NCBI RefSeq assembly: GCF_018977255.1
Contig: NW_024704747.1
Location: 16,678,001-16,742,000 of the forward strand
DNA length: 64,000 nt
Direction: 5' to 3'
From: Callorhinchus milii
Lineage: Eukaryota
Part shown: piece after piece, positions 2,903 to 52,545 of the stretch
Position numbering within the stretch: the stretch's first letter is position 1
Layout of the letters: every line of letters begins with the position of its first letter
The notes under the pieces: model-generated
What the model was told of the DNA's origin: nothing
The model's database searches: none
What the model saw: the letters and a program-made list of their open reading frames with translations, nothing else
Position numbers and translations under genes: made by a program

Positions 2903-3475
2903 NNNNNNNNNNNNNNNNNNNNNNNNNNNNNNNNNNNNNNNNNNNNNNNNNNNNNNNNNNNNNNNNNNNNNNNNNNNNNNNNNNNNNNNNNNNNNNNNNN
3001 NNNNNNNNNNNNNNNNNNNNNNNNNNNNNNNNNNNNNNNNNNNNNNNNNNNNNNNNNNNNNNNNNNNNNNNNNNNNNNNNNNNNNNNNNNNNNNNNNNNN
3101 NNNNNNNNNNNNNNNNNNNNNNNNNNNNNNNNNNNNNNNNNNNNNNNNNNNNNNNNNNNNNNNNNNNNNNNNNNNNNNNNNNNNNNNNNNNNNNNNNNNN
3201 NNNNNNNNNNNNNNNNNNNNNNNNNNNNNNNNNNNNNNNNNNNNNNNNNNNNNNNNNNNNNNNNNNNNNNNNNNNNNNNNNNNNNNNNNNNNNNNNNNNN
3301 NNNNNNNNNNNNNNNNNNNNNNNNNNNNNNNNNNNNNNNNNNNNNNNNNNNNNNNNNNNNNNNNNNNNNNNNNNNNNNNNNNNNNNNNNNNNNNNNNNNN
3401 NNNNNNNNNNNNNNNNNNNNNNNNNNNNNNNNNNNNNNNNNNNNNNNNNNNNNNNNNNNNNNNNNNNNNNNNNNN
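2903..3475. other. assembly gap (573 N)
   Basis: Run of N. Confidence 1.
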
Positions 3476-3502
3476 TCCCGGCCACCACAGCTAAGTCACA
3501 AT

Positions 3503-3650
3503 TTATATTCGTAGTCTGTCTGATCTGATGTGATTCCTGATTTATAATCCTTTAGCTGCTCCCATTCCCTCTGCCTTATATTCGTAGTCTGTCTGATCTG
3601 ATGTGATTCCTGATTTATAATCCTTTAGCTGCTCCCATTCCCTCTGCCTT
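3503..3650. repeat. perfect 73-bp tandem duplication
   Basis: TTATATTCGTAGTC...CCCTCTGCC occurs at 3503 and again at 3576. Confidence 0.9.
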
Positions 3651-31335: not shown

Positions 31336-31461
31336 GGTTCTCGCACCACATCCAGCCTGTCTGCTGCCACCCTCGCCTCTCTGGGGGGCACCTCCTCCCG
31401 GAGGGGCAGCGGCGACACCATCGCCTCCGTGGACACCGAAGCATCCATCCGCGAGATCAAG
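31336..31461 (+). CDS. LRRFIP1: LRRFIP1 exon ([42 protein letters not shown])
   Basis: Conserved [18 protein letters not shown] motif; ttcag/gtaaga; 126 bp. Confidence 0.97.
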
Positions 31462-33881: not shown

Positions 33882-34052
33882 GATTCGCTGGCAGAGGTGG
33901 AGGAGAAGTACAGGAAAGCAATGGTGTCCAACGCTCAGCTAGACAATGAGAAGAACACTCTGATGTACCAGGTGGACACACTGCAGGATGTGCTTCTGGA
34001 GGTGGAGGAGCATCTGGCTGAGAGCAACAGGGAATTCCAGGAAAAGGCCAAA
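33882..34052 (+). CDS. LRRFIP1: LRRFIP1 coiled-coil exon ([24 protein letters not shown]...EKAK)
   Basis: LRRFIP signature [13 protein letters not shown]; cccag/gtgagt; 171 bp. Confidence 0.98.
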
Positions 34053-34577
34053 GTGAGTAGCCAGCAGAGGCAGCCCAGCCCAGCTCAGGGGAACTACCCT
34101 GGAGGTCGGGGGTTTGGGATGTGCACCGCCCTAACCGTTCGCTCCATTGCCATCCTTCAGATGAAACATTGAACCAAGGTTACTGCCTGTGGGGCTGGAG
34201 GGAGGTCAGGACAGCCTGGGAGGTGACGAGTGCGGTATGGGAGAGCGTGTGACTCCAGAGTCTTGATAATCTGGTGACCGAGCAAGAACGTGGTGAGGTC
34301 CTGGGAAATTACGGTGGGAGACAGATGGAGAAGTCTTCATTTTAACATAGCAAGGATTGGAGGAAGACAAGGATTGTGAGCCCGTAGAGCTGATTGCCAG
34401 CCTTGGAGGGAGGGAGGGATTGGGAGGGAGGGGAGAGAGGGAGGGAGAGTGAAGGAGAAGGAGGGAGGGAACCCAGCGCAGCAGAAGGCTGTTGTGATGT
34501 TTTCTGTTTAAAGCAGTTTGAAGCTGGTTGTGTGTGAGCTGAATTCTGTGCTCTCTCTCTCCTTTTTGATCCTCCAG

Positions 34578-34670
34578 GAGTTAGAAAGAGAGAAGCACGC
34601 CCACAGCGTGTTACAGTTTCAGTTTGAGGAAATCAAAGAGTCTCTGAAACAGAGAGAAGAGATGTTAATG
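34578..34670 (+). CDS. LRRFIP1: LRRFIP1 exon ([31 protein letters not shown])
   Basis: [13 protein letters not shown] is LRRFIP1-type; tccag/gtaagt; 93 bp. Confidence 0.97.
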
Positions 34671-38329: not shown

Positions 38330-38462
38330 GCCCATGGGCTGGTGGTATCCGAAGTGTTAAATGGGGATGGGGGGAGGGAAGGTGACTCACACACAGACCC
38401 CGCGGAGGTGGCATCTCGGGACGCCGCGCCCCAGCTCCCGAACTGCCCCGACGGACCATTAG
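38330..38462 (+). CDS. LRRFIP1: LRRFIP1 last common exon (AHGLVVSEVLNGD...PDGPL+G), ends phase 1
   Basis: Equivalent to human KHGIIL...GDGTL; tgcag/gtaagt; phase 1 fits both downstream acceptors (40990 and 48786). Confidence 0.92.
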
Positions 38463-39088
38463 GTAAGTGAACCTCAGCTGAAATAACTTCTTGCACTCTG
38501 CTCGCTTTTGGCTTATCAGTCTCTGTGTTAACCGTTTGCCCTCATTCATCCCAAATATCAGTGTCTAGTGGACCCGGTTTTGGGGGGAGGAGGGTCGGGG
38601 GAAAAGATTTCTCAGGATCTTGAGTCTTATTGGGAATGGTCCAGTCAGCCACCAGTATACATTTGCTCCACTCTCATCACTTTATTATGGATTTGTCCAT
38701 GTATCTGACTTCGCACCAAGGCTCCGATTATAGAACTGATGGAACAACGCAGTTAGTGATCTCTCAGATGGTTACTTTCTCTCTGATTGTGGAGGGCCTG
38801 GGTGATGGGAGGTGGGGAAGAGGAGGTTTTGCGCTCATTATATTTGGGTGGCAGATAGAAGAAGTCTATTCTACCCAAAGGTGTTAGGCAAAATCGTGAT
38901 TTGGATCAAATGTGCTCTCATACCTTGCAGTGGGGGTGAGAAGGGAGGAGGAGTGAATGACAGGGGAGTGTTTTAAGGCATCGCCCGTTTGGTAAGCAGG
39001 ACGTTTCCTCAAAAACGAAGACTGCTTGTCCTGGACTTCTGGACAAGATCCTAAAAAGAGACTCTGTCCGTCCATCATCTTAATCCAG

Positions 39089-39423
39089 AGGCTTGAAATT
39101 CCACCAGATCTTAGTCTGTGAGACCGTTTTGTCTTAAAAAATTTAGTGGGAATGATGAAAAATTGTTACATTTATGTTGATTAATAATAATCTTTGCATA
39201 TGATAGAGCATCTTATCACGTCGTTGGGAGTCACAAAGCACTTTACAGAATATACTGTAAAGTAGATTTTGACTATTTTTGGGGCAAAAATGCTTAAATT
39301 CACTAGCCAGGTTTTTGCTTGAGGAATTGACTTCAAAATTAAGACTGAATTTAACAGTTTTCCACAATTCACTGTGGTCCTGCATTTGAATGAAAGTGGG
39401 TGGACCGGGTGGAATTTCAGGGC
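39089..39423. mobile_element. MITE-like element with an inserted SINE tail
   Basis: GGCTTGAAATTCCACC ... GGTGGAATTTCAGGG inverted ends; SINE tail at ~39180-39290. Confidence 0.6.
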
Positions 39424-40989
39424 TCAGGTGAGGAGCTGGTCTTTTAGGTCAGGGGAATCGATTATACCCAGAGATGCTGTCCTCTATGTCCGCTTAATCG
39501 TTCAGCACACTTTACCTCTCTCTCCTGACTTTTCTCTGGATTTTCTGTGTTTGCTCTCTCTTTGTTCCAGACTTCTGGAAGGAAATTGTAACTTATGTAA
39601 TACAGATGCTTTGCAGAGTTGACACTGGCAATCTGCTCGTTCAATTCTGCCTCGGCAGTGACGAGTATATTAATTGTTACTTTCATGTTGACGTATAAAT
39701 ATTTCTGGGTTATTTGAGGGGGGACGATGACGGAGTAATCCCTTCTAAAAATAGCCCTGTCATGATTGCTTTTTCTTAACCCTTCACCCACCCCGGGGAG
39801 ATGTCAAACTCAAATGTGGAACAATGTTGCCACCTCCTGGCACGACTCCAAAATTTTCAATTTTACTGGAGGAAAAAAATTGAAGGACAGGAACCAAAGA
39901 GCTCTCTCTCTCTCTCTCTCACGCTCACAAGCCTCCTTTTCCACCTCTCCCACCACCTCCACCACCCGCTCACAAAATACCTTTGCAATATGGTAATTTT
40001 CGACCACCTTGAGAGGGAAAGGGTTAAGTCAAGCCTGGCACACTCAGTAATTGAGGAAATCGTAGATCCCCAACTACATGATTGATTCTCTGTGGTTAAT
40101 GGCTTTCTTCTACCCCCAAAATTTACCACTTTATGATCGTGGCATTAACCCTTCAAGGACTGCGTAGCATTTTTTCTTATTTTGACGGGTTCTTCGAATG
40201 GGAGGTATATGGAGTGAGGGAGATTGTGTTTCTTTTCATCCTATTTTACATATACACAATCTCTCGGCTCAGGGAGCAAGTGAGGCCACGCAGCAGGGTC
40301 CAGGTTTGATACCTAGTCTGCAGTGGGGACCAGTGTAACCGGGGAGAAGAGGGGGAGGGGCGGGGGAACAGAGAGATATTAGTGCCACCTTCTCCTTGCT
40401 CTTCCCCTGCCTCATACCTCCCGCTCTAACTCTCTATCCCATTGCTCTCCGTGCTGCCTCTCATGAGCTTGTACGAGGCAACGCAAGGAGCAACGGGAAG
40501 AGAGCGGGTGGTAAAGGCTGTGCATATACCTAAAGGCCACCAGGGGGCGCATTTACCCCCCCCACCCACACACATGTTCCCAATTGCTGCTGCTACTGGT
40601 GAGAGGCTGGCATTAGCCGGGTTTGGGAAGCCGGCAGCCAGGGGTCCCCACTGCTAATCACTTTCCAGTGTATGTGCGTGGGAGTAAGCGTGGGGGGTGA
40701 GGACAGGATCAGCGGGCTCAGTTAATTGTCCTCAACGTTCCAATAATCTCCAATAATGGGGAACTGGAGAGAGGAGGGCATCGTTTCCACCCCCCCCACC
40801 CCTACATAGAGCTATACCCAGGGAACGATTAAGCACCTTCAGGAGAGAAGGTGGAGGAGGGAAGGGAAAGAAGAAAAAGTACAAATAAGAAAATTCACAG
40901 TCAAAAGCCACATTGGAAATTCAGAACTCAAAGGGTTAATTTGCACTGAATGGGTGTGGTGTCTTTACCTCTTCCAATGGTCCTTTTAG

Positions 40990-43900
40990 GCAAAACCCAG
41001 GAAATGGAGATGAGAAATGAGATTTTGGAGAATGTTGGGAGGAAAGGAGTCTTCCAGAATGCTGGAAATGATGCTGAACAGATGGAGAAGACTGGGGATG
41101 AGGAGGTGATAATGGATAATGTGGAAGGAAAGGAAAAGCAGACTGGCGGACACGAAAAGCAATGTGAGGACATGATTGGCACTGAGAAACCAACAGTCAG
41201 TGCTGCAGATAATGGAAACGTGGACCAGATAGGAAGCAAAGCCGCAGAAAATCTTGATGGAGAGCAAAATGCCTTTGGCGTTGGAATCAGTGAAGAAAAA
41301 GAGGTGTCTCAGGTGGTAAAGGTTGCGGACGACGTAGACATTGATGCAGGAGTGCAGATCTCTGCTAAAGCAGAGGAAAGTCAGAGAGCAATTGAAGTGA
41401 ATGATAGTCAGGCTCAAGGGAGGGGAAGCCTTAGTGATATTCACACAAGGGCGGATCAGTTTGATGGAGTGCACTTTGGAGGTACCGATTGCGAGATGGC
41501 AGAGGCAGTAGCCCCAGGGGTAGAGGATGAGTTGGGTGAGAATGTTGGGCGCGATGGAGACGGCAAATCAATAGCCCCAGAGGCAGAGGGTGAGTTGGGT
41601 GAAGATGTTGAAAGCGATGAAGATGGAAATAAGAGAACATTGGAAGAGGAAAGCAAGCAAATAGTAGATATCATTATAAAGCGGGCGGTAGAAATTGTGG
41701 AGCGGGAGATGGGCTTCAGTAATGTGCAGGAAGAGTTCCCAAAGGTAGAGGTTACTGAAGAGGAGACTGTCGACCAAATGCAAGGTGACCCCTCAGATGC
41801 AATGTGGGAAGAGGCTTGCGAATTAGTTTGTGACAAGGGGGATAGAGGGGATGAGATTATGAATGAGCAGTCCAGCATCAGTCATGTGGCTTCAGATAAC
41901 GCAGAGTTGAGCTCCGCATGCCTAGATGCTGAAAAACATCCAGGAAATCTTTATGAAAATGTAGATCTGGGAAGTGTGGAGGTAAACATGGTAGAACAAG
42001 GTCAAAGCGAACAGCCTGGGTCATGTCAGGAGACGACAGGCTCGATAGGTAATCAGTTGCAGGATGTATCTGAGAACGTGGGGAACAGAGAAGAGAGAGA
42101 ACAAGATCAGTTAGAGGAGAAAGACATCACACAGACATTAGTGAGAGAGAGGATTGACATTGAGCTAATAGCAGAAGAGGTGAAATCAGCCACTCATGGG
42201 GATCAGGGCAATAAGATCGAGAATAGTTTGCACAGAGAACAAGAGACAGAGACCTCAGCAGTCAAACAGAGGATTGGTCAGAATGAAGAGGACACTGGAC
42301 GTGCTGACCCGGAACAGGAGGTGGAGGCGGGAAGAGTGCGAAGGGCAGCAGACGATGACAAATTGATGCCCGCACAAAACAAAGAAACTGGTTCCCAGGA
42401 GAAATCCGATGAGACCCAGGAGATGTCCAGGCTGGGAGGCAGTGTGGAGCCTGGCTTTGTACAGGGCAGCCAGAATGAGACCATCATTGAAAGTGCAGCT
42501 AAAGGATCTGGAGTGGGTGAGGCAGAGACCAAGAGGCAGGATGTGAGCGAGATCAAGGCTGAGACCACAACCATGGAAGAGGATGAGTCTGGGATCAAAG
42601 GTGAGGTTAAGAGCCCTGGAGAGGATGAGGGTCAGGTGAGGACCGACCCAGAGGGGGAGGAACCTCGTTGTACAGACAAACAAGAGACTCTGGAGAAAAC
42701 AGTGAAGGAGACTGTTCTGGATGAAGGGGAGATAAAGGCTACTCAACCTGATTTTCACCACAGAGACGTTGTAGTGGAGGCTGAAGAGAAGGAAGAACTG
42801 AAGGAGAAGAGAGTGAGCGAGGTTGTACAGGGGGAACCGAACGACAGCGGGAAACACGACCGTGGCAAGAGTGAGGATGTTAATGAGCCGGAAAAGGTGA
42901 CCAAAGCTGCGGGTAATGTAAGTGCTGGCGAGAGACGCCCAGCGTTAGCTGGAGACGAGGAGGAGGCTGAAACAAGTAAAGATTCAGTTGTGCAAGAAAG
43001 TGTGGAGGTGGGAAATGGTGAAGCGGGACAGAGAGCTGAGATCAGTGACGAGGGTGAAGAGGCTCAGCTGAGGCTGCAGATGTCAGAGGTGGCCATGAAT
43101 GAGAAAGAGCCAGTGGCCAGAGGGGAAGAGGCGGGGGCCAGAGGGGAAGAGGCGGGGGCCGGAGGGGAAGAGGCCGGGGCCGGAGGGGAAGAGGCCGGGG
43201 CCGGAGGGGAAGAGGCCGGGGCCGGAGGGGAAGAGGCCGGGGCCGGAGGGGAAGAGGCCGGGGCCGGAGGGGAAGAGGCCGGGGCCGGAGGGGAAGAGGC
43301 CGGGGCCGGAGGGGAAGAGGCCGGGGCCGGAGGGGAAGAGGCGGGGGCCGGAGGGGAAGAGGCGGGGGCCGGAGGGGAAGAGGCGGGGGCCGGAGGGGAA
43401 GAGGCGGAGGCCGGAGGGGAAGAGGCGGGGGCCGGAGGGGAAGAGGCGGGGGCCGGAGGGGAAGAAGGGGGGCCGGAGGGGAAGAGGGGGGGCCGGAGGG
43501 GAAGAGGGGGGGGCCGGAGGGGAAGAAGGGGGGCCGGAGGGGAAGAAGGGGGGCCAGAGGGGAAGAAGGGGGGGCCAGAGGGGAAGAAGGGGGGGCCAGA
43601 GGGGAAGAAGGGGGGGCCAGAGGGGAAGAAGGGGGGGTCAGTGAGGAAGAGGCATTGGCCACAGGAGAAGAAGGTGAACAAGGGAAGCCCGAGTCCAACC
43701 AAGAAGCAGAGATGCTTCTGGACGAGAGCGGGCAGCCGGCCCTTCAGCAGAGCGTAGCGATATTGGAGGGTAGGTCAGAGCATGGAATGGAAACCGAGGA
43801 GGGTAAGAAAGGGGACAGCACGCAGGAGGAAGAAGCCAATACGGTGACGGATTCTCAGGAGAACAGCGAGAAACCACAAGAATGTCCAGGCAGTTCGGCA

Positions 43901-44368
43901 ACTCCGGAGGTCGAGGCAAAGCAGGAAGTGGGTGAGGAAAAAGATGGGTACATCAGGGAAGAGGTTCCGGCTAAATGGAACGAAGGAAAGAGAGAGATAT
44001 TGCAGGGAAAATCACATGGCAATGAACGGGATGACGTTGAAGAGCAGAAAGCGGCGCCTACTGAAAGCAACGAAGTGTGTGAGCCATTGGGCGGCCAGGA
44101 AGAGAATCCGCGGTCTGTAGTGGAGAGTAAACCCATCACAGTTAACCGGGCAGAGGAGGTGGAAGTGGTAGGAAGGGAGGAGGGAGAGGGAGGGAGTGAA
44201 GCTCAGGAAGCTAAGCAATTGAGTATTAGTGAGCAGCAAACCAACAACAACAATGGGGAAGAGCAGAGGGCAGAAGGTGGGGAACGTGAGGAGTCAAGTG
44301 AAATGTCACACAAATTCAAACCTGGTAAGGCAAAGAGAAAGAGTAAAGATGATTGTTTAATGTCCTGA
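40990..44368 (+). CDS. LRRFIP1: LRRFIP1 large acidic alternative terminal exon (GCF2/TRIP-type isoform), apparent frameshift within the VNTR
   Basis: ttttag acceptor, phase 1; starts (G)KTQEMEMRNEILENVGRK (human GRASEVEVKNEIVANVGKR) and ends KRKSKDDCLMS* (human KSKEDCTMS); ORFs 40950-43757 and 43655-44368 join if 4 G are restored in the repeat. Confidence 0.9.
43119..43639 (+). repeat. coding minisatellite, 25 units of ~21 bp (GGEEAGA/RGEEGGA)
   Basis: Unit GGAGGGGAAGAGGCCGGGGCC; 21 units are 21 bp and four are 20 bp. Confidence 0.95.
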
Positions 44369-48785: not shown

Positions 48786-48835
48786 ATTTTAGGCTGAGAA
48801 AATTATTAGATGAAAGAGATGTACTGTTAGAACAG
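48786..48835 (+). CDS. LRRFIP1: LRRFIP1 coiled-coil isoform exon ((D)FRLRKLLDERDVLLEQ)
   Basis: Human DIRLKKLVDERECLLEQ; long polypyrimidine tract, cccag/gtaact; phase 1 start. Confidence 0.95.
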
Positions 48836-49284
48836 GTAACTTTCTACATTCTTCTTGCTCAGAGCTAGGTTTTCCTTCCTGCTTTCATCAAAAACTCTTT
48901 CAAATATCTTGTATCTTGTTTTATTTTTTAAAAAAAGATTGTCTTTTCTCCTCTCCTCAAATGTGCTGACTAGAGCCACAGTCAGGTCCTCTTGTCAAAG
49001 TGCTCCGAACATTATCCTATGTGAAGGCTGCTATATTAGTGCAAATTGTTGTTGTTGTTGTGTTGACTCATTCCAGGTATAGATTCTCATTCCAACGTGC
49101 TAACTCGTGCCAGATGCAAGGTCTCGTACCAGGGCCCAATTTTTATCTATCGAGTTTAGACAATAAAGATCATTAAAATCATTAGACTATGGAGCTGCCT
49201 GGATATTCACATGAGGACAAGGATCACTGGAAAGGAACTCTGTCTGACGTTTCCTCCCTAGCCCAGGGACGTCAAAGCCAACTA

Positions 49285-49558
49285 AGAGAGACCTGAGTTC
49301 AATTCCAGACAGGGCGAAACCTTGGGCAAGTTTCCTTACTCCACACGCCTAATAATAATCCCTCCAAAAAAACAAAACAATAATAAATTGGTCATTTTCA
49401 ATTTACGACTGTTTCTGGGATATTGCTGTGTGCAATTGGCTGCCGCGTTCGCCCACAAATATACAGTCAATTCACTTTACAGTATATTCTGTGAAGCGCT
49501 TTGGGACGTCTAGAAGATGTGAAAAGCGCTATATCAAATGCAAGGATTATTATTATTA
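49285..49558 (+). mobile_element. short-variant tRNA-SINE, 5' truncated
   Basis: GGGCGAAACCTTGGGCAAGTTTCCTTACTCCACACGCCTAATAATAATCCCTCC ... (ATT)n. Confidence 0.8.
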
Positions 49559-49763
49559 TGATGCACTAGCTGTGATCAGCTAACTAACTGCCCAAATCAT
49601 ACAGCAAGGCTTGGCTTTACACCAGCTCGGCATAATTACCAATTAAACCACCAGGGGAGCTATGTTTCCTATTGAATGTATATGGGATTCAATGTAGAGT
49701 CATGCTAATCAGTGTAAAAGTTCTATAGAGTTATAGTTGTAACAAAATATGTGTTTCTTTCAG

Positions 49764-49881
49764 GTTAAAAAATTAAAAGCACAGATTGATGATAAAACGA
49801 AGAATGGGAAAGTGGATAATGTCATGTCGGATGATGCAATCTTACAAAACGGGACTGACCTGCAGATGATTGAAGTGCAAA
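49764..49881 (+). CDS. LRRFIP1: LRRFIP1 exon (VKKLKAQIDDK...NGTDLQMIEVQ+A)
   Basis: Human IKKLKGQL...ENGTDMHVMDLQ; ttcag/gtgagc; 118 bp. Confidence 0.95.
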
Positions 49882-49937
49882 GTGAGCTTCTCATCCGTGT
49901 TTCTCTGGCCAATATAATCTATGTTAGTATTAGTGGC

Positions 49938-50705
49938 AGCAGGCTCAGTTGGTAGCAGTCTCACCTCTGAGTAAGAAGATTGTGGATTCAAGCCCCACGT
50001 CGGGATTTTGAACTCAGTCTAGGCTGAGACTCCAGTGCAATGCTGAGGACACGCTACATTGTTGGAGGTGCCGTTGTTTGGATGAGATGTTAAACCGAGG
50101 TCCATCTGACTGTTTAGGTGGACGTCAAAGATCCCATTGACATCCTTCAAAAAGAGGAGGGAGTTTCTCTTGATGCCCTGGCCTACAATTCACCAGATAG
50201 AATTAGTAATTTCCTTCACGGCTGATTAGAGTCCTGTAGCATATTGATTAGACCACTCGCCTCGCAAGCAAGAGGACCTGGGTTTGATTCCCGGGCAGGG
50301 CGAAACGTTAGGCAAGTTTCCTTATTCCACGTGCCTCTGTTTATCTAGCTGTAAGTGGGAGCCCGGTTGTTAGTCGATTGGAGGATTGCTTTTCTGGGGG
50401 TAATAATCCCTTCAACAAAAATAAAAAATAATAAGTTGGTCACTCAATTCACAACTGTTTGTAGGACACTGCTGTGCGCAGTTGGCTGCTGCGTGCCACC
50501 CTCAAAAGTACGTAATAAATTCACTTTACAGTATATTCTGTGAAGTGCTTTGAGATGTTTCAAAGACATGATAAGGCACTGTATCAAATGCAAGGATTAT
50601 TAATATTATTGTGGGATATCACTGTGTGCAATTTGGCTGCCACATTCGCCCACAAGTACAAGGTCACTACACTCTACAGTAAAATCCTGTGAACCACTTT
50701 GAGAC
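49938..50705 (+). mobile_element. Deu-SINE with a nested full-length long-variant SINE (50229-50610)
   Basis: Host interrupted at CACGGCTGATTA and resumes at GTGGGATATCACTGTGTG; the insert begins GAGTCCTGTAGC. Confidence 0.8.
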
Positions 50706-50908
50706 TGGTCGACACGGTGAACTTACGATTCGGAAACGTTGACCATTTTTATTGCAAGGCCATTTATAAAGCAGGGTCTAATTTTTATGGACCCAAACCA
50801 CTCTGTTTTAATAGGATCTGACTGCATGTTGTATTACATACTGTTATTACTGTCTGATTTGAATGCAATCAGTCATTGAGCTCTGGTGTCATGTCTCCTT
50901 TTTTGCAG

Positions 50909-50988
50909 GAGATGCCAACAGGCAAGTCAGTGAATATAAATTTAAACTCGCAAAATCCGAACAGGAAATAATCGCTTTGGAACAAAAT
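50909..50988 (+). CDS. LRRFIP1: LRRFIP1 exon ((R)[26 protein letters not shown])
   Basis: Conserved RDANRQ.S..KFKL.KSEQE; tgcag/gtaagt; 80 bp. Confidence 0.96.
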
Positions 50989-51249
50989 GTAAGTTTGTGA
51001 CACTGCAAGGTGAAGTTTTATATCTGCGAGCTTCCTAGTTTAACTGCTGCCTGGTTTGCTGGCTACCATCTTAATGCTGCTTTTATATTACACATGAAGC
51101 AGTGAATTGCCCCAGGTTGTTGCAGCAATTTACCACCAGACACAGCCCAATGCAGATCACACTGGAGTCCTGCTCTTGGCACAACCTGGAGATGATTCAC
51201 AGAGCAGGCGATTTTCACAAATATACTTCACAGTATAGATGTGGCGCAT

Positions 51250-51460
51250 TAATCAGTGGCCATTGGGATTAGTGAATGAGCGTTGGGATTAATCAATAAA
51301 AAATTACATTAATCAATGATCATTGGGATTAGTCAAAGGGCATTAGGATTGGGTTGAGTCAGTGAGTGTTCAGATTTGGTTACATCAATGAGAATTGGGT
51401 TGGGTCAGTGGAATTGGGGATACGATTGGGTCAGTAGATATTGGCATTGAGTTAATCAGC
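51250..51460. repeat. degenerate ~20-bp tandem repeat (ATTGGG-TTAGTCAGTG-like)
   Basis: Recurrent CATTGGGATTAGT/TGGGTCAGT units. Confidence 0.55.
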
Positions 51461-51564
51461 CTTGTCCCCTGTAACTACTATCATGTAAGATTTACAGTTC
51501 ACTATATGTGATCACATTGTTTCTCTAATGTTTCTTTGGTGTGGGGGAAATTGTGATATTTCAG

Positions 51565-51669
51565 ATAATTCGTCTTGAAAGTCAAGTGTTGCGCTACAAA
51601 GGTTCCGCAGAAAATGCAGAGAAAGTGGAAGATGATCTCAAGGCAGAAAAACGGAAACTCCAAAGAGAG
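51565..51669 (+). CDS. LRRFIP1: LRRFIP1 exon (IIRLESQVLRYKGSAENAEKVEDDLKAEKRKLQRE)
   Basis: Highly conserved; ttcag/gtaact; 105 bp. Confidence 0.97.
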
Positions 51670-52434
51670 GTAACTCTAATAATATATACAGTAATATCAC
51701 TGAGATTGGTGGACTTTCATTTTCAGTATATTCCTGTGCACATTCCAACGTGGTTTGACCAGCCGCCAAGTTGGAATCTGGTGTCTGAACGGCTTAATTA
51801 TTACTCACTGAAGAAGTGAAACGATGCTTTAAAAAAAGGCAAAGTATAGATCACACAGTGGTAACGTTCTGTGGGAGTATTCCAGCAAAATACCTACAAA
51901 ATACATAGTCGCTGTACTTTACAGTAAGTCTTCTGCAGCACTTTGAGATGTCCTCCCAACATGACAAGTGCTACATCAAATGTATGGATTATTAATACCT
52001 CCTTGAGTAACCCCCTCTCTCCTACAGTCTACAGCTGGTTATCACTTGCCCATCTCTTAATGCAGCTCCACATTATACTCTTTTCTGTGTGAGAGGTGCA
52101 CAGCGTAAAAATGGCACACAAGAAATTGAATATTTAAAAAAAAGACTCTTGACGCGCCTCTAGAAGTCCGCTTTGCTTCAGTTTGACCAGAATTCAGGAG
52201 ACCAGAGACTTGTGGCTCAATCTGTTAGCTTGTGAAAAAAAAGGCCCTAATAATCTTAAAAATCCTTAATTGGACCCTAATGGGTGTCTTTGGTTCCTTT
52301 AAGTCTCCTGCCCTCACCAGTCGCTTTCCCTGAATATTTTGTGCTTGCTGCTTCAGAAGTGTTCATCATGTGTATGCACATCCATGCAGACAAATACACA
52401 CATATGTGACTCTGGACTGCTTGTATCATGACAG

Positions 52435-52545
52435 GTACGTTCGGCACTGGATAAAATCGAAGAGCTGGAAATGAGCAACAGTCATCTGGTAAAGAGACTG
52501 GAGAAGAAGAAAGCCAACAGGAGTGCCCTGCTTTCTCAGCAGTAG
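52435..52545 (+). CDS. LRRFIP1: LRRFIP1 terminal coding exon ([36 protein letters not shown])
   Basis: Human [36 protein letters not shown]; gacag acceptor, TAG at 52543-52545. Confidence 0.96.

Follow-up and report, generated by a model that had tools for sequence, protein, structure and literature searches.

The long form of LRRFIP1 in Callorhinchus milii ends in an acidic tail that carries a conserved and probably functional docking helix, 22 residues long and encoded at 41637..41702 (+), as judged from translation, hydrophobic moment and ortholog alignment. The helix likely docks PKA RII, which would make the long form an AKAP, a reading to which we give a probability of roughly 55%. The long form would accordingly be a lineage-specific, likely membrane-tethered candidate PKA anchor, and it is a good candidate for, but not yet a member of, the type II AKAPs, since the Pfam threshold is missed.

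The analysed window, a stretch of 64,000 nucleotides, comprises most of LRRFIP1, and the exons of UniRef LRRFIP1 proteins were mapped over positions 2354-52542. Two exons at 33882..34670 (+) encode the LRRFIP coiled-coil domain (Pfam PF09738, E 4.4e-72 on P0003), and this coiled coil together with the splice into 40990 identifies the long form as a member of the LRRFIP family. The last shared exon lies at 38330..38462 (+), and its donor leads either to 40990 in the long form or to an exon at 48786 in the short form. In the long form, the alternative last exon is long and acidic, with its coding part at 40990..44368 (+) and an AG acceptor before it, whereas the downstream exons of the short form (48786..52542, +, from exon mapping and spliced contigs) carry neither the helix nor a CaaX box. 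A first homolog search with residues 14-330 of the long exon returned six chimaera proteins and no others, and over these residues the exon frame matches four UniRef proteins named LRRFIP1 at 100%; exon mapping and UniRef matches thus agree with the first-pass annotation, which had placed the segment in the acidic last exon of LRRFIP1.

That annotation had also proposed a choice between terminal exons, and spliced contigs contain both joints from donor 38462. In run X1, a contig of 2616 nt is spliced from 38462 to 40990 at GT..AG and continues across the helix up to 43100, and the same joint is present again in run X7, while contigs of runs X3 and X7 go from 38462 to the exon at 48786. Because both joints are found, both last-exon choices occur as spliced molecules, with the runs presumed to be RNA (none is recorded as such, and the case for transcripts is the GT..AG joints). 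None of the variant sites listed for four runs falls within the helix, and the internal donor 41163 of models P0005 and P0006 is absent among the joints and loose ends listed. Elsewhere in the window, contigs cover the intronic stretch 39182-39370 at very high depth in four of four runs, as expected of a high-copy repeat, and at 2903-3650 an N gap of 573 bases precedes an exact duplication of 73 nt, probably marking an assembly seam.

The 22 residues given in the first-pass annotation are encoded exactly, within the open frame 40950-43757, and in the non-repeat part of the exon the five highest hydrophobic moments, taken over 14 residues, all lie on the helix. The AKAP register quoted there (L2, S6, I9-V10, I13-I14, A17-V18) is correct, and it is followed by I20-V21. 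Eight of 17 positions are identical to AKAP-IS as the annotation quotes that peptide. The hydrophobic period is 96 degrees as against 103 for a heptad coil, and AlphaFold2, run on a 19-row alignment, predicts a helix with a pLDDT of about 95 across the core; at about six turns, the predicted helix covers the 14-18-residue amphipathic stretch of at least five turns that defines AKAP helices. A single-sequence search of the PDB with the helix gave two weak, unrelated matches. Directly 5' of the helix lies a 63-nt tandem duplication (41509..41630, +, from repeat analysis and ortholog alignment), which accounts for an offset of about 21 residues relative to the elasmobranch orthologs.

Chance expectation was assessed on shuffles of the exon. 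A loose AKAP pattern is present in 36% of 5000 shuffles, the plain hydrophobic-face score of the helix is equalled in 175 of 1000, and a stricter pattern, composed post hoc with the helix already known, occurs in 0.9%. The consensus LxxxAxxIVxxAIxxA, taken from PMC3682517 and independent of the ortholog finding, is matched by the chimaera helix at five of seven positions, a score reached by 45 of 5000 shuffles, or by 18 of 5000 when BLOSUM scores are used. Such a match is rare for a single exon and ordinary proteome-wide; therefore, the case rests on conservation, for which orthologs were needed.

The starting point for the orthologs was a set of 148 new representatives, in which P0180 from Rhinoraja matched the helix best, self-matches aside, and P0153 from Mustelus showed the same pattern. 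The comparison covers 19 elasmobranch proteins from 18 species, with a Cetorhinus duplicate (P0274) excluded from the alignment. All 18 shark and ray species examined have the helix in register, and it is gap-free in 19 species including the chimaera; degenerate copies occur in whale shark, with Pro at position 14, and in zebra shark. Past the first 100-110 exon residues, a cut-off that was chosen post hoc and sets aside an exon start of about 100 residues more conserved than the helix, it is the top-conserved 22-mer in both comparisons: none of 305 non-overlapping 22-mer windows past residue 110 equals its score between chimaera and elasmobranchs, and none of 315 past residue 100 does so among elasmobranchs alone, where its identity is 0.62 compared with a mean of 0.44. 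Between chimaera and elasmobranchs the helix has an identity of 0.28, and values of 0.28-0.29 are attained in some other windows. There is no indel within the helix in 19 sequences, whereas the flanks have many, and a deletion of about 36 residues immediately upstream in three rays leaves it intact. Changes on the hydrophobic face are nearly all conservative, with I/L at position 2 (18/19), S/T at 6 (19/19), I/V at 9 (19/19), V at 10 (17/19), V/I at 13 (19/19), V/L/I at 14 (18/19) and A/S/T at 17 (19/19). The check suggested by the first-pass annotation, that the helix be kept while its flanks diverge, therefore came out in its favor, the helix forming an island of conservation in chimaera, sharks and rays alike.

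The helix was not found in the bony-vertebrate LRRFIP proteins examined. With a profile built from the 19 helices, 23 chondrichthyan long forms, which are profile sources or their duplicates, reach 33-52 bits, and 264 other proteins reach at most 2.9 bits; of these others, 262 do not belong to the named chondrichthyan set. These 262 include 115 amniote-type proteins (113 of them named, from turtles, crocodilians, birds, lizards and carnivorans) and many teleost-like ones; the named mammals are carnivorans only, and human is not among the named proteins. A bird match equally far from the exon start was rejected as support: it has K/R or E at position 9, is not kept in crocodilians or carnivorans, lies in a region of unreliable alignment and scores below 3 bits on the profile.

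Other segments were observed in these tails. The first 30 or so residues of the long exon (within 40990-41300) are also kept in amniotes. In 10 of 49 teleost-like proteins (P0126 at 1131-1152, P0183, P0264 and others) an amphipathic segment precedes the CaaX end by 43-59 residues, several copies containing proline, and that of P0126 is the best non-chondrichthyan match to a matrix of the shark helix (0 of 200 shuffles). P0152, a non-amniote LRRFIP1 (1964 aa), carries an AKAP-like helix elsewhere in its tail, at 1032-1053; the profile gives no support for homology of this helix to that of sharks, and a tree of 23 rows, from which four were omitted as their anchor motif was not found, places P0152 among the non-amniote rows.

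As for the identity of the partner, the first-pass proposal of a membrane-anchored AKAP is partly borne out, by the conserved island, the splicing and the CaaX end, and is weakened by elasmobranch copies that fit the consensus less well than the chimaera does, with exact matches at 2-4 of the seven positions in 16 proteins and at none in whale and zebra shark. The helix is nonetheless the best consensus match of the whole tail in 13 of the 16 elasmobranch proteins scored, 15 of which have tails longer than 1300 residues (three proteins were omitted, their tail not having been located), and among 195 other tails five score 17-18, equal to the better elasmobranch copies. Neither position 6 nor position 13 ever has the consensus Ala, T/S and V/I being found instead. 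PMC12083921 describes an AKAP face of eight positions including position 5; the conserved pattern, small at 6 and 17 and with paired aliphatics at 9/10, 13/14 and 17/18, covers seven of the eight, and position 5 is always E or K. The F/Y-A pair at positions 1-2 that the same paper gives as a type I criterion occurs in 0 of 19 helices, and RI selectivity is therefore unlikely.

Database searches were equivocal. When the chimaera piece is searched in isolation, its top family match is Pfam RII_binding_1 (E 0.04 and 0.019), at 14.6-15.6 bits and thus below the gathering threshold of 18.8, and this model matches 1 of 19 members; three unrelated helical Pfam families match 3-4 members each with similar E-values, and longer exon pieces give no RII_binding_1 match. 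The 19-helix profile, searched against the PDB without a positive control, found no AKAP in 13 matches with E up to 10. In the ESM Atlas, an AKAP14-like cluster stood in row 2 of 10 of a structure search but under the tool's bar, and it was discounted because a lone helix resembles many things; a feature search with both helices gave no usable match. Acidic or polar residues stand beside the hydrophobic patches (E4, invariant, and E/Q at 19), broadly in the manner of the anchor model outlined in PMC11367651, a likeness that concerns the flanks. PMC3405040 notes that RII sites lack a clear consensus, and in talin the RII-binding site was not among the predicted helices, according to a preprint (bioRxiv 10.1101/2023.08.20.554038); motif prediction can mislead, and predicted AKAP helices may be wrong.

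The foremost alternative, in our view rather unlikely, is that the helix serves as a binding element for a partner outside the D/D fold, or that the two copies in an LRRFIP1 dimer pair with each other. Conservation shows selection and not the identity of the partner, and the polar face is as fixed as the hydrophobic one (E4 19/19, Q7 17/19, Q11 16/19, E15 18/19, with E/Q at 19), while a hydrophobic position 3 (18/19) and a charged position 5 (E or K, 19/19) depart from the usual AKAP face; profile searches of Pfam and the PDB yield generic helices, and the LRRFIP1 coiled coil is dimeric according to the title of a paper cited in PMC6406849. A partner of this kind would, however, leave the small residues 6 and 17, with the aliphatic pairs 9/10 and 13/14, to coincide with the top RII consensus site in 13 of 16 tails, and the 96-degree period is unlike that of a self-pairing heptad coil. 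Docking to another D/D-fold dimer, either DPY-30-like or one of the RIID2 proteins such as Sp17, would mean that the protein is not an AKAP, and we regard it as improbable: in PMC12203939 such helices are said to resemble AKAP helices without binding the kinase, AKAP28 being cited as a possible case for reclassification, but the same text places such proteins mostly in cilia and flagella, whereas the helix here belongs to a CaaX-tailed protein, and it specifies four turns for DPY-30 and five for R subunits, against about six in this helix. It is very improbable that the segment is a functionless chance amphipathic stretch that seems conserved through slow chondrichthyan evolution, since the frequency of loose patterns in shuffles, the unexceptional chimaera-elasmobranch identity, the degenerate copies in two carpet sharks and the lack of the helix in bony vertebrates are outweighed by its top rank past the exon start in both comparisons, its freedom from indels between indel-rich flanks and its conservative face changes.

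The first-pass annotation had further joined the helix and a CaaX tail in one isoform, of which the conserved CaaX end stands, whereas the two lie in different frames as assembled. By C-terminal alignment, a conserved lysine-rich stretch and the CaaX box CLMS, a predicted farnesylation signal, are encoded at 44315..44368 (+), the stop included (44366-44368). Between helix and CaaX box, repeat analysis finds a coding repeat of 21 nt in about 26 copies (43115..43653, +), and since four of its units at 43456-43556 are 20 nt long, each short of one G in a G run, the helix frame ends at stop 43757 and the CaaX end falls in another frame. Read in the helix frame, the first 17 units give Gly-Glu-Glu, as the last four do when read in the CaaX frame, and elasmobranch C-termini align with the frame that follows the repeat; the frame break is likely an assembly (homopolymer) error that breaks the gene model. 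The long UniRef models P0002-P0004 terminate at the start of the repeat, and other database models splice around the true end. Of the 115 amniote models, 112 have a CaaX-type end, as have 9 of the 19 from elasmobranchs; of the ten elasmobranch models without it, nine have the C-terminus of the short form and one ends early.

The same C-terminal alignment brought up a second conserved tail motif at 43970..44002 (+), which contains W and aligns with FEWD of elasmobranchs. Elasmobranchs have F/L-E-W-D here and bony vertebrates F-D-F-D, with acidic residues and xxx[ILV]L coming next, and the motif also occurs in P0180 near 1646 and in P0164 near 1219 and 1628. It is more widely spread than the helix, as the pattern is present in 15 of 19 proteins from elasmobranchs, in 55 of 115 from amniotes (0 of 52 from carnivorans) and in 39 of 49 teleost-like ones. 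We presume a resemblance to W-acidic kinesin-light-chain motifs or acidic dileucine sorting motifs.

In the proposed mechanism, the choice of last exon at donor 38462 would yield either a long form with helix and CaaX box or a short coiled-coil form that lacks both. The long form would dimerise through its coiled coil and offer the helix from a disordered acidic tail. Binding of AKAPs by a helix in the D/D groove is the textbook mechanism, and a natural RII D/D is found at L001:368-514 (Pfam RIIa E 7.5e-15, with RII-alpha chains at the top of the PDB matches). The helix would fold upon binding, with residues 2/3, 6, 9/10, 13/14, 17/18 and 20/21 facing the groove of RII and the small residues 6 and 17 allowing close seating, and RII would be preferred over RI, the FA pair at positions 1-2 being missing. 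Farnesylation at CLMS and the lysine stretch would bring about membrane contact, so that the long form would hold PKA near the membrane, where the anchored kinase might act on LRRFIP1 partners, e.g., Flightless I, or on a conserved RRGS site. This RRGS, a PKA-type phosphorylation motif, is encoded in a shared exon at 31399..31410 (+) and occurs in 18 of the 19 elasmobranch proteins and in all 115 from amniotes.

On a broader and doubtful reading, last-exon choice in chondrichthyans would be an on/off switch for a farnesyl-anchored AKAP that brings cAMP signals to a Flightless I/beta-catenin adaptor, and bony vertebrates would have kept the exon and the CaaX box and lost the dock. If binding holds, the protein would be an AKAP of a kind that escapes human-centred screens, and the 19 species with the helix, two of them with degenerate copies, would offer a natural gain-or-loss comparison of PKA anchoring with bony vertebrates; the long and poorly understood LRRFIP1 tail would also gain a defined role in one lineage. 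Interest is limited by the distance of cartilaginous fishes from medical models. Titles and abstract openings of the papers listed give no pointer to LRRFIP1 as an AKAP, although subscription papers, supplements or the in-silico AKAP list that the talin preprint cites might name it, and the terms PKA, CaaX and prenyl have no occurrences in PMC6406849, a review, or PMC13769427.

Among known systems, the helix is closest to the docking helices of type II AKAPs (RII_binding_1, PF10522; consensus from PMC3682517), which it resembles in register, spacing, the five of seven consensus residues of the chimaera copy, a length of five to six turns and a location within a disordered acidic region; it differs from them in falling below the Pfam cut-off, in S/T at 6 and I/V at 13, and in the charge at 5. 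The protein shares with the long isoform of LRRFIP1/GCF2 the gene itself, the coiled coil, the acidic last exon with its start and a CaaX-type end, whereas the amniote and teleost-like LRRFIP1/GCF2 tails examined are without the helix of the chimaera form. PKA helices gained in particular lineages are described for AKAP8/AKAP95, ERM proteins and OPA1 (PMC12203939), and AKAP79 is missing from fish (PMC12083921). As in AKAP8/AKAP95, ERM proteins and OPA1, the docking helix of LRRFIP1 is present in part of an ortholog family; unlike in these and in AKAP79, it is found in cartilaginous fishes and not in the bony vertebrates examined. Among the proteins compared, no tail from a jawless outgroup was identified, and the helix may have been either gained or lost. 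In the paralemmin family, alternative 3' exons set the CaaX anchor and splicing can add an RII site, as set out in PMC3405040, and LRRFIP1 is like paralemmin and PALM2-AKAP2 in that the choice of 3' exon decides on the CaaX anchor. In PALM2-AKAP2, however, the RII site is acquired via read-through into a downstream gene, whereas LRRFIP1 holds the helix and the CaaX box in one exon.
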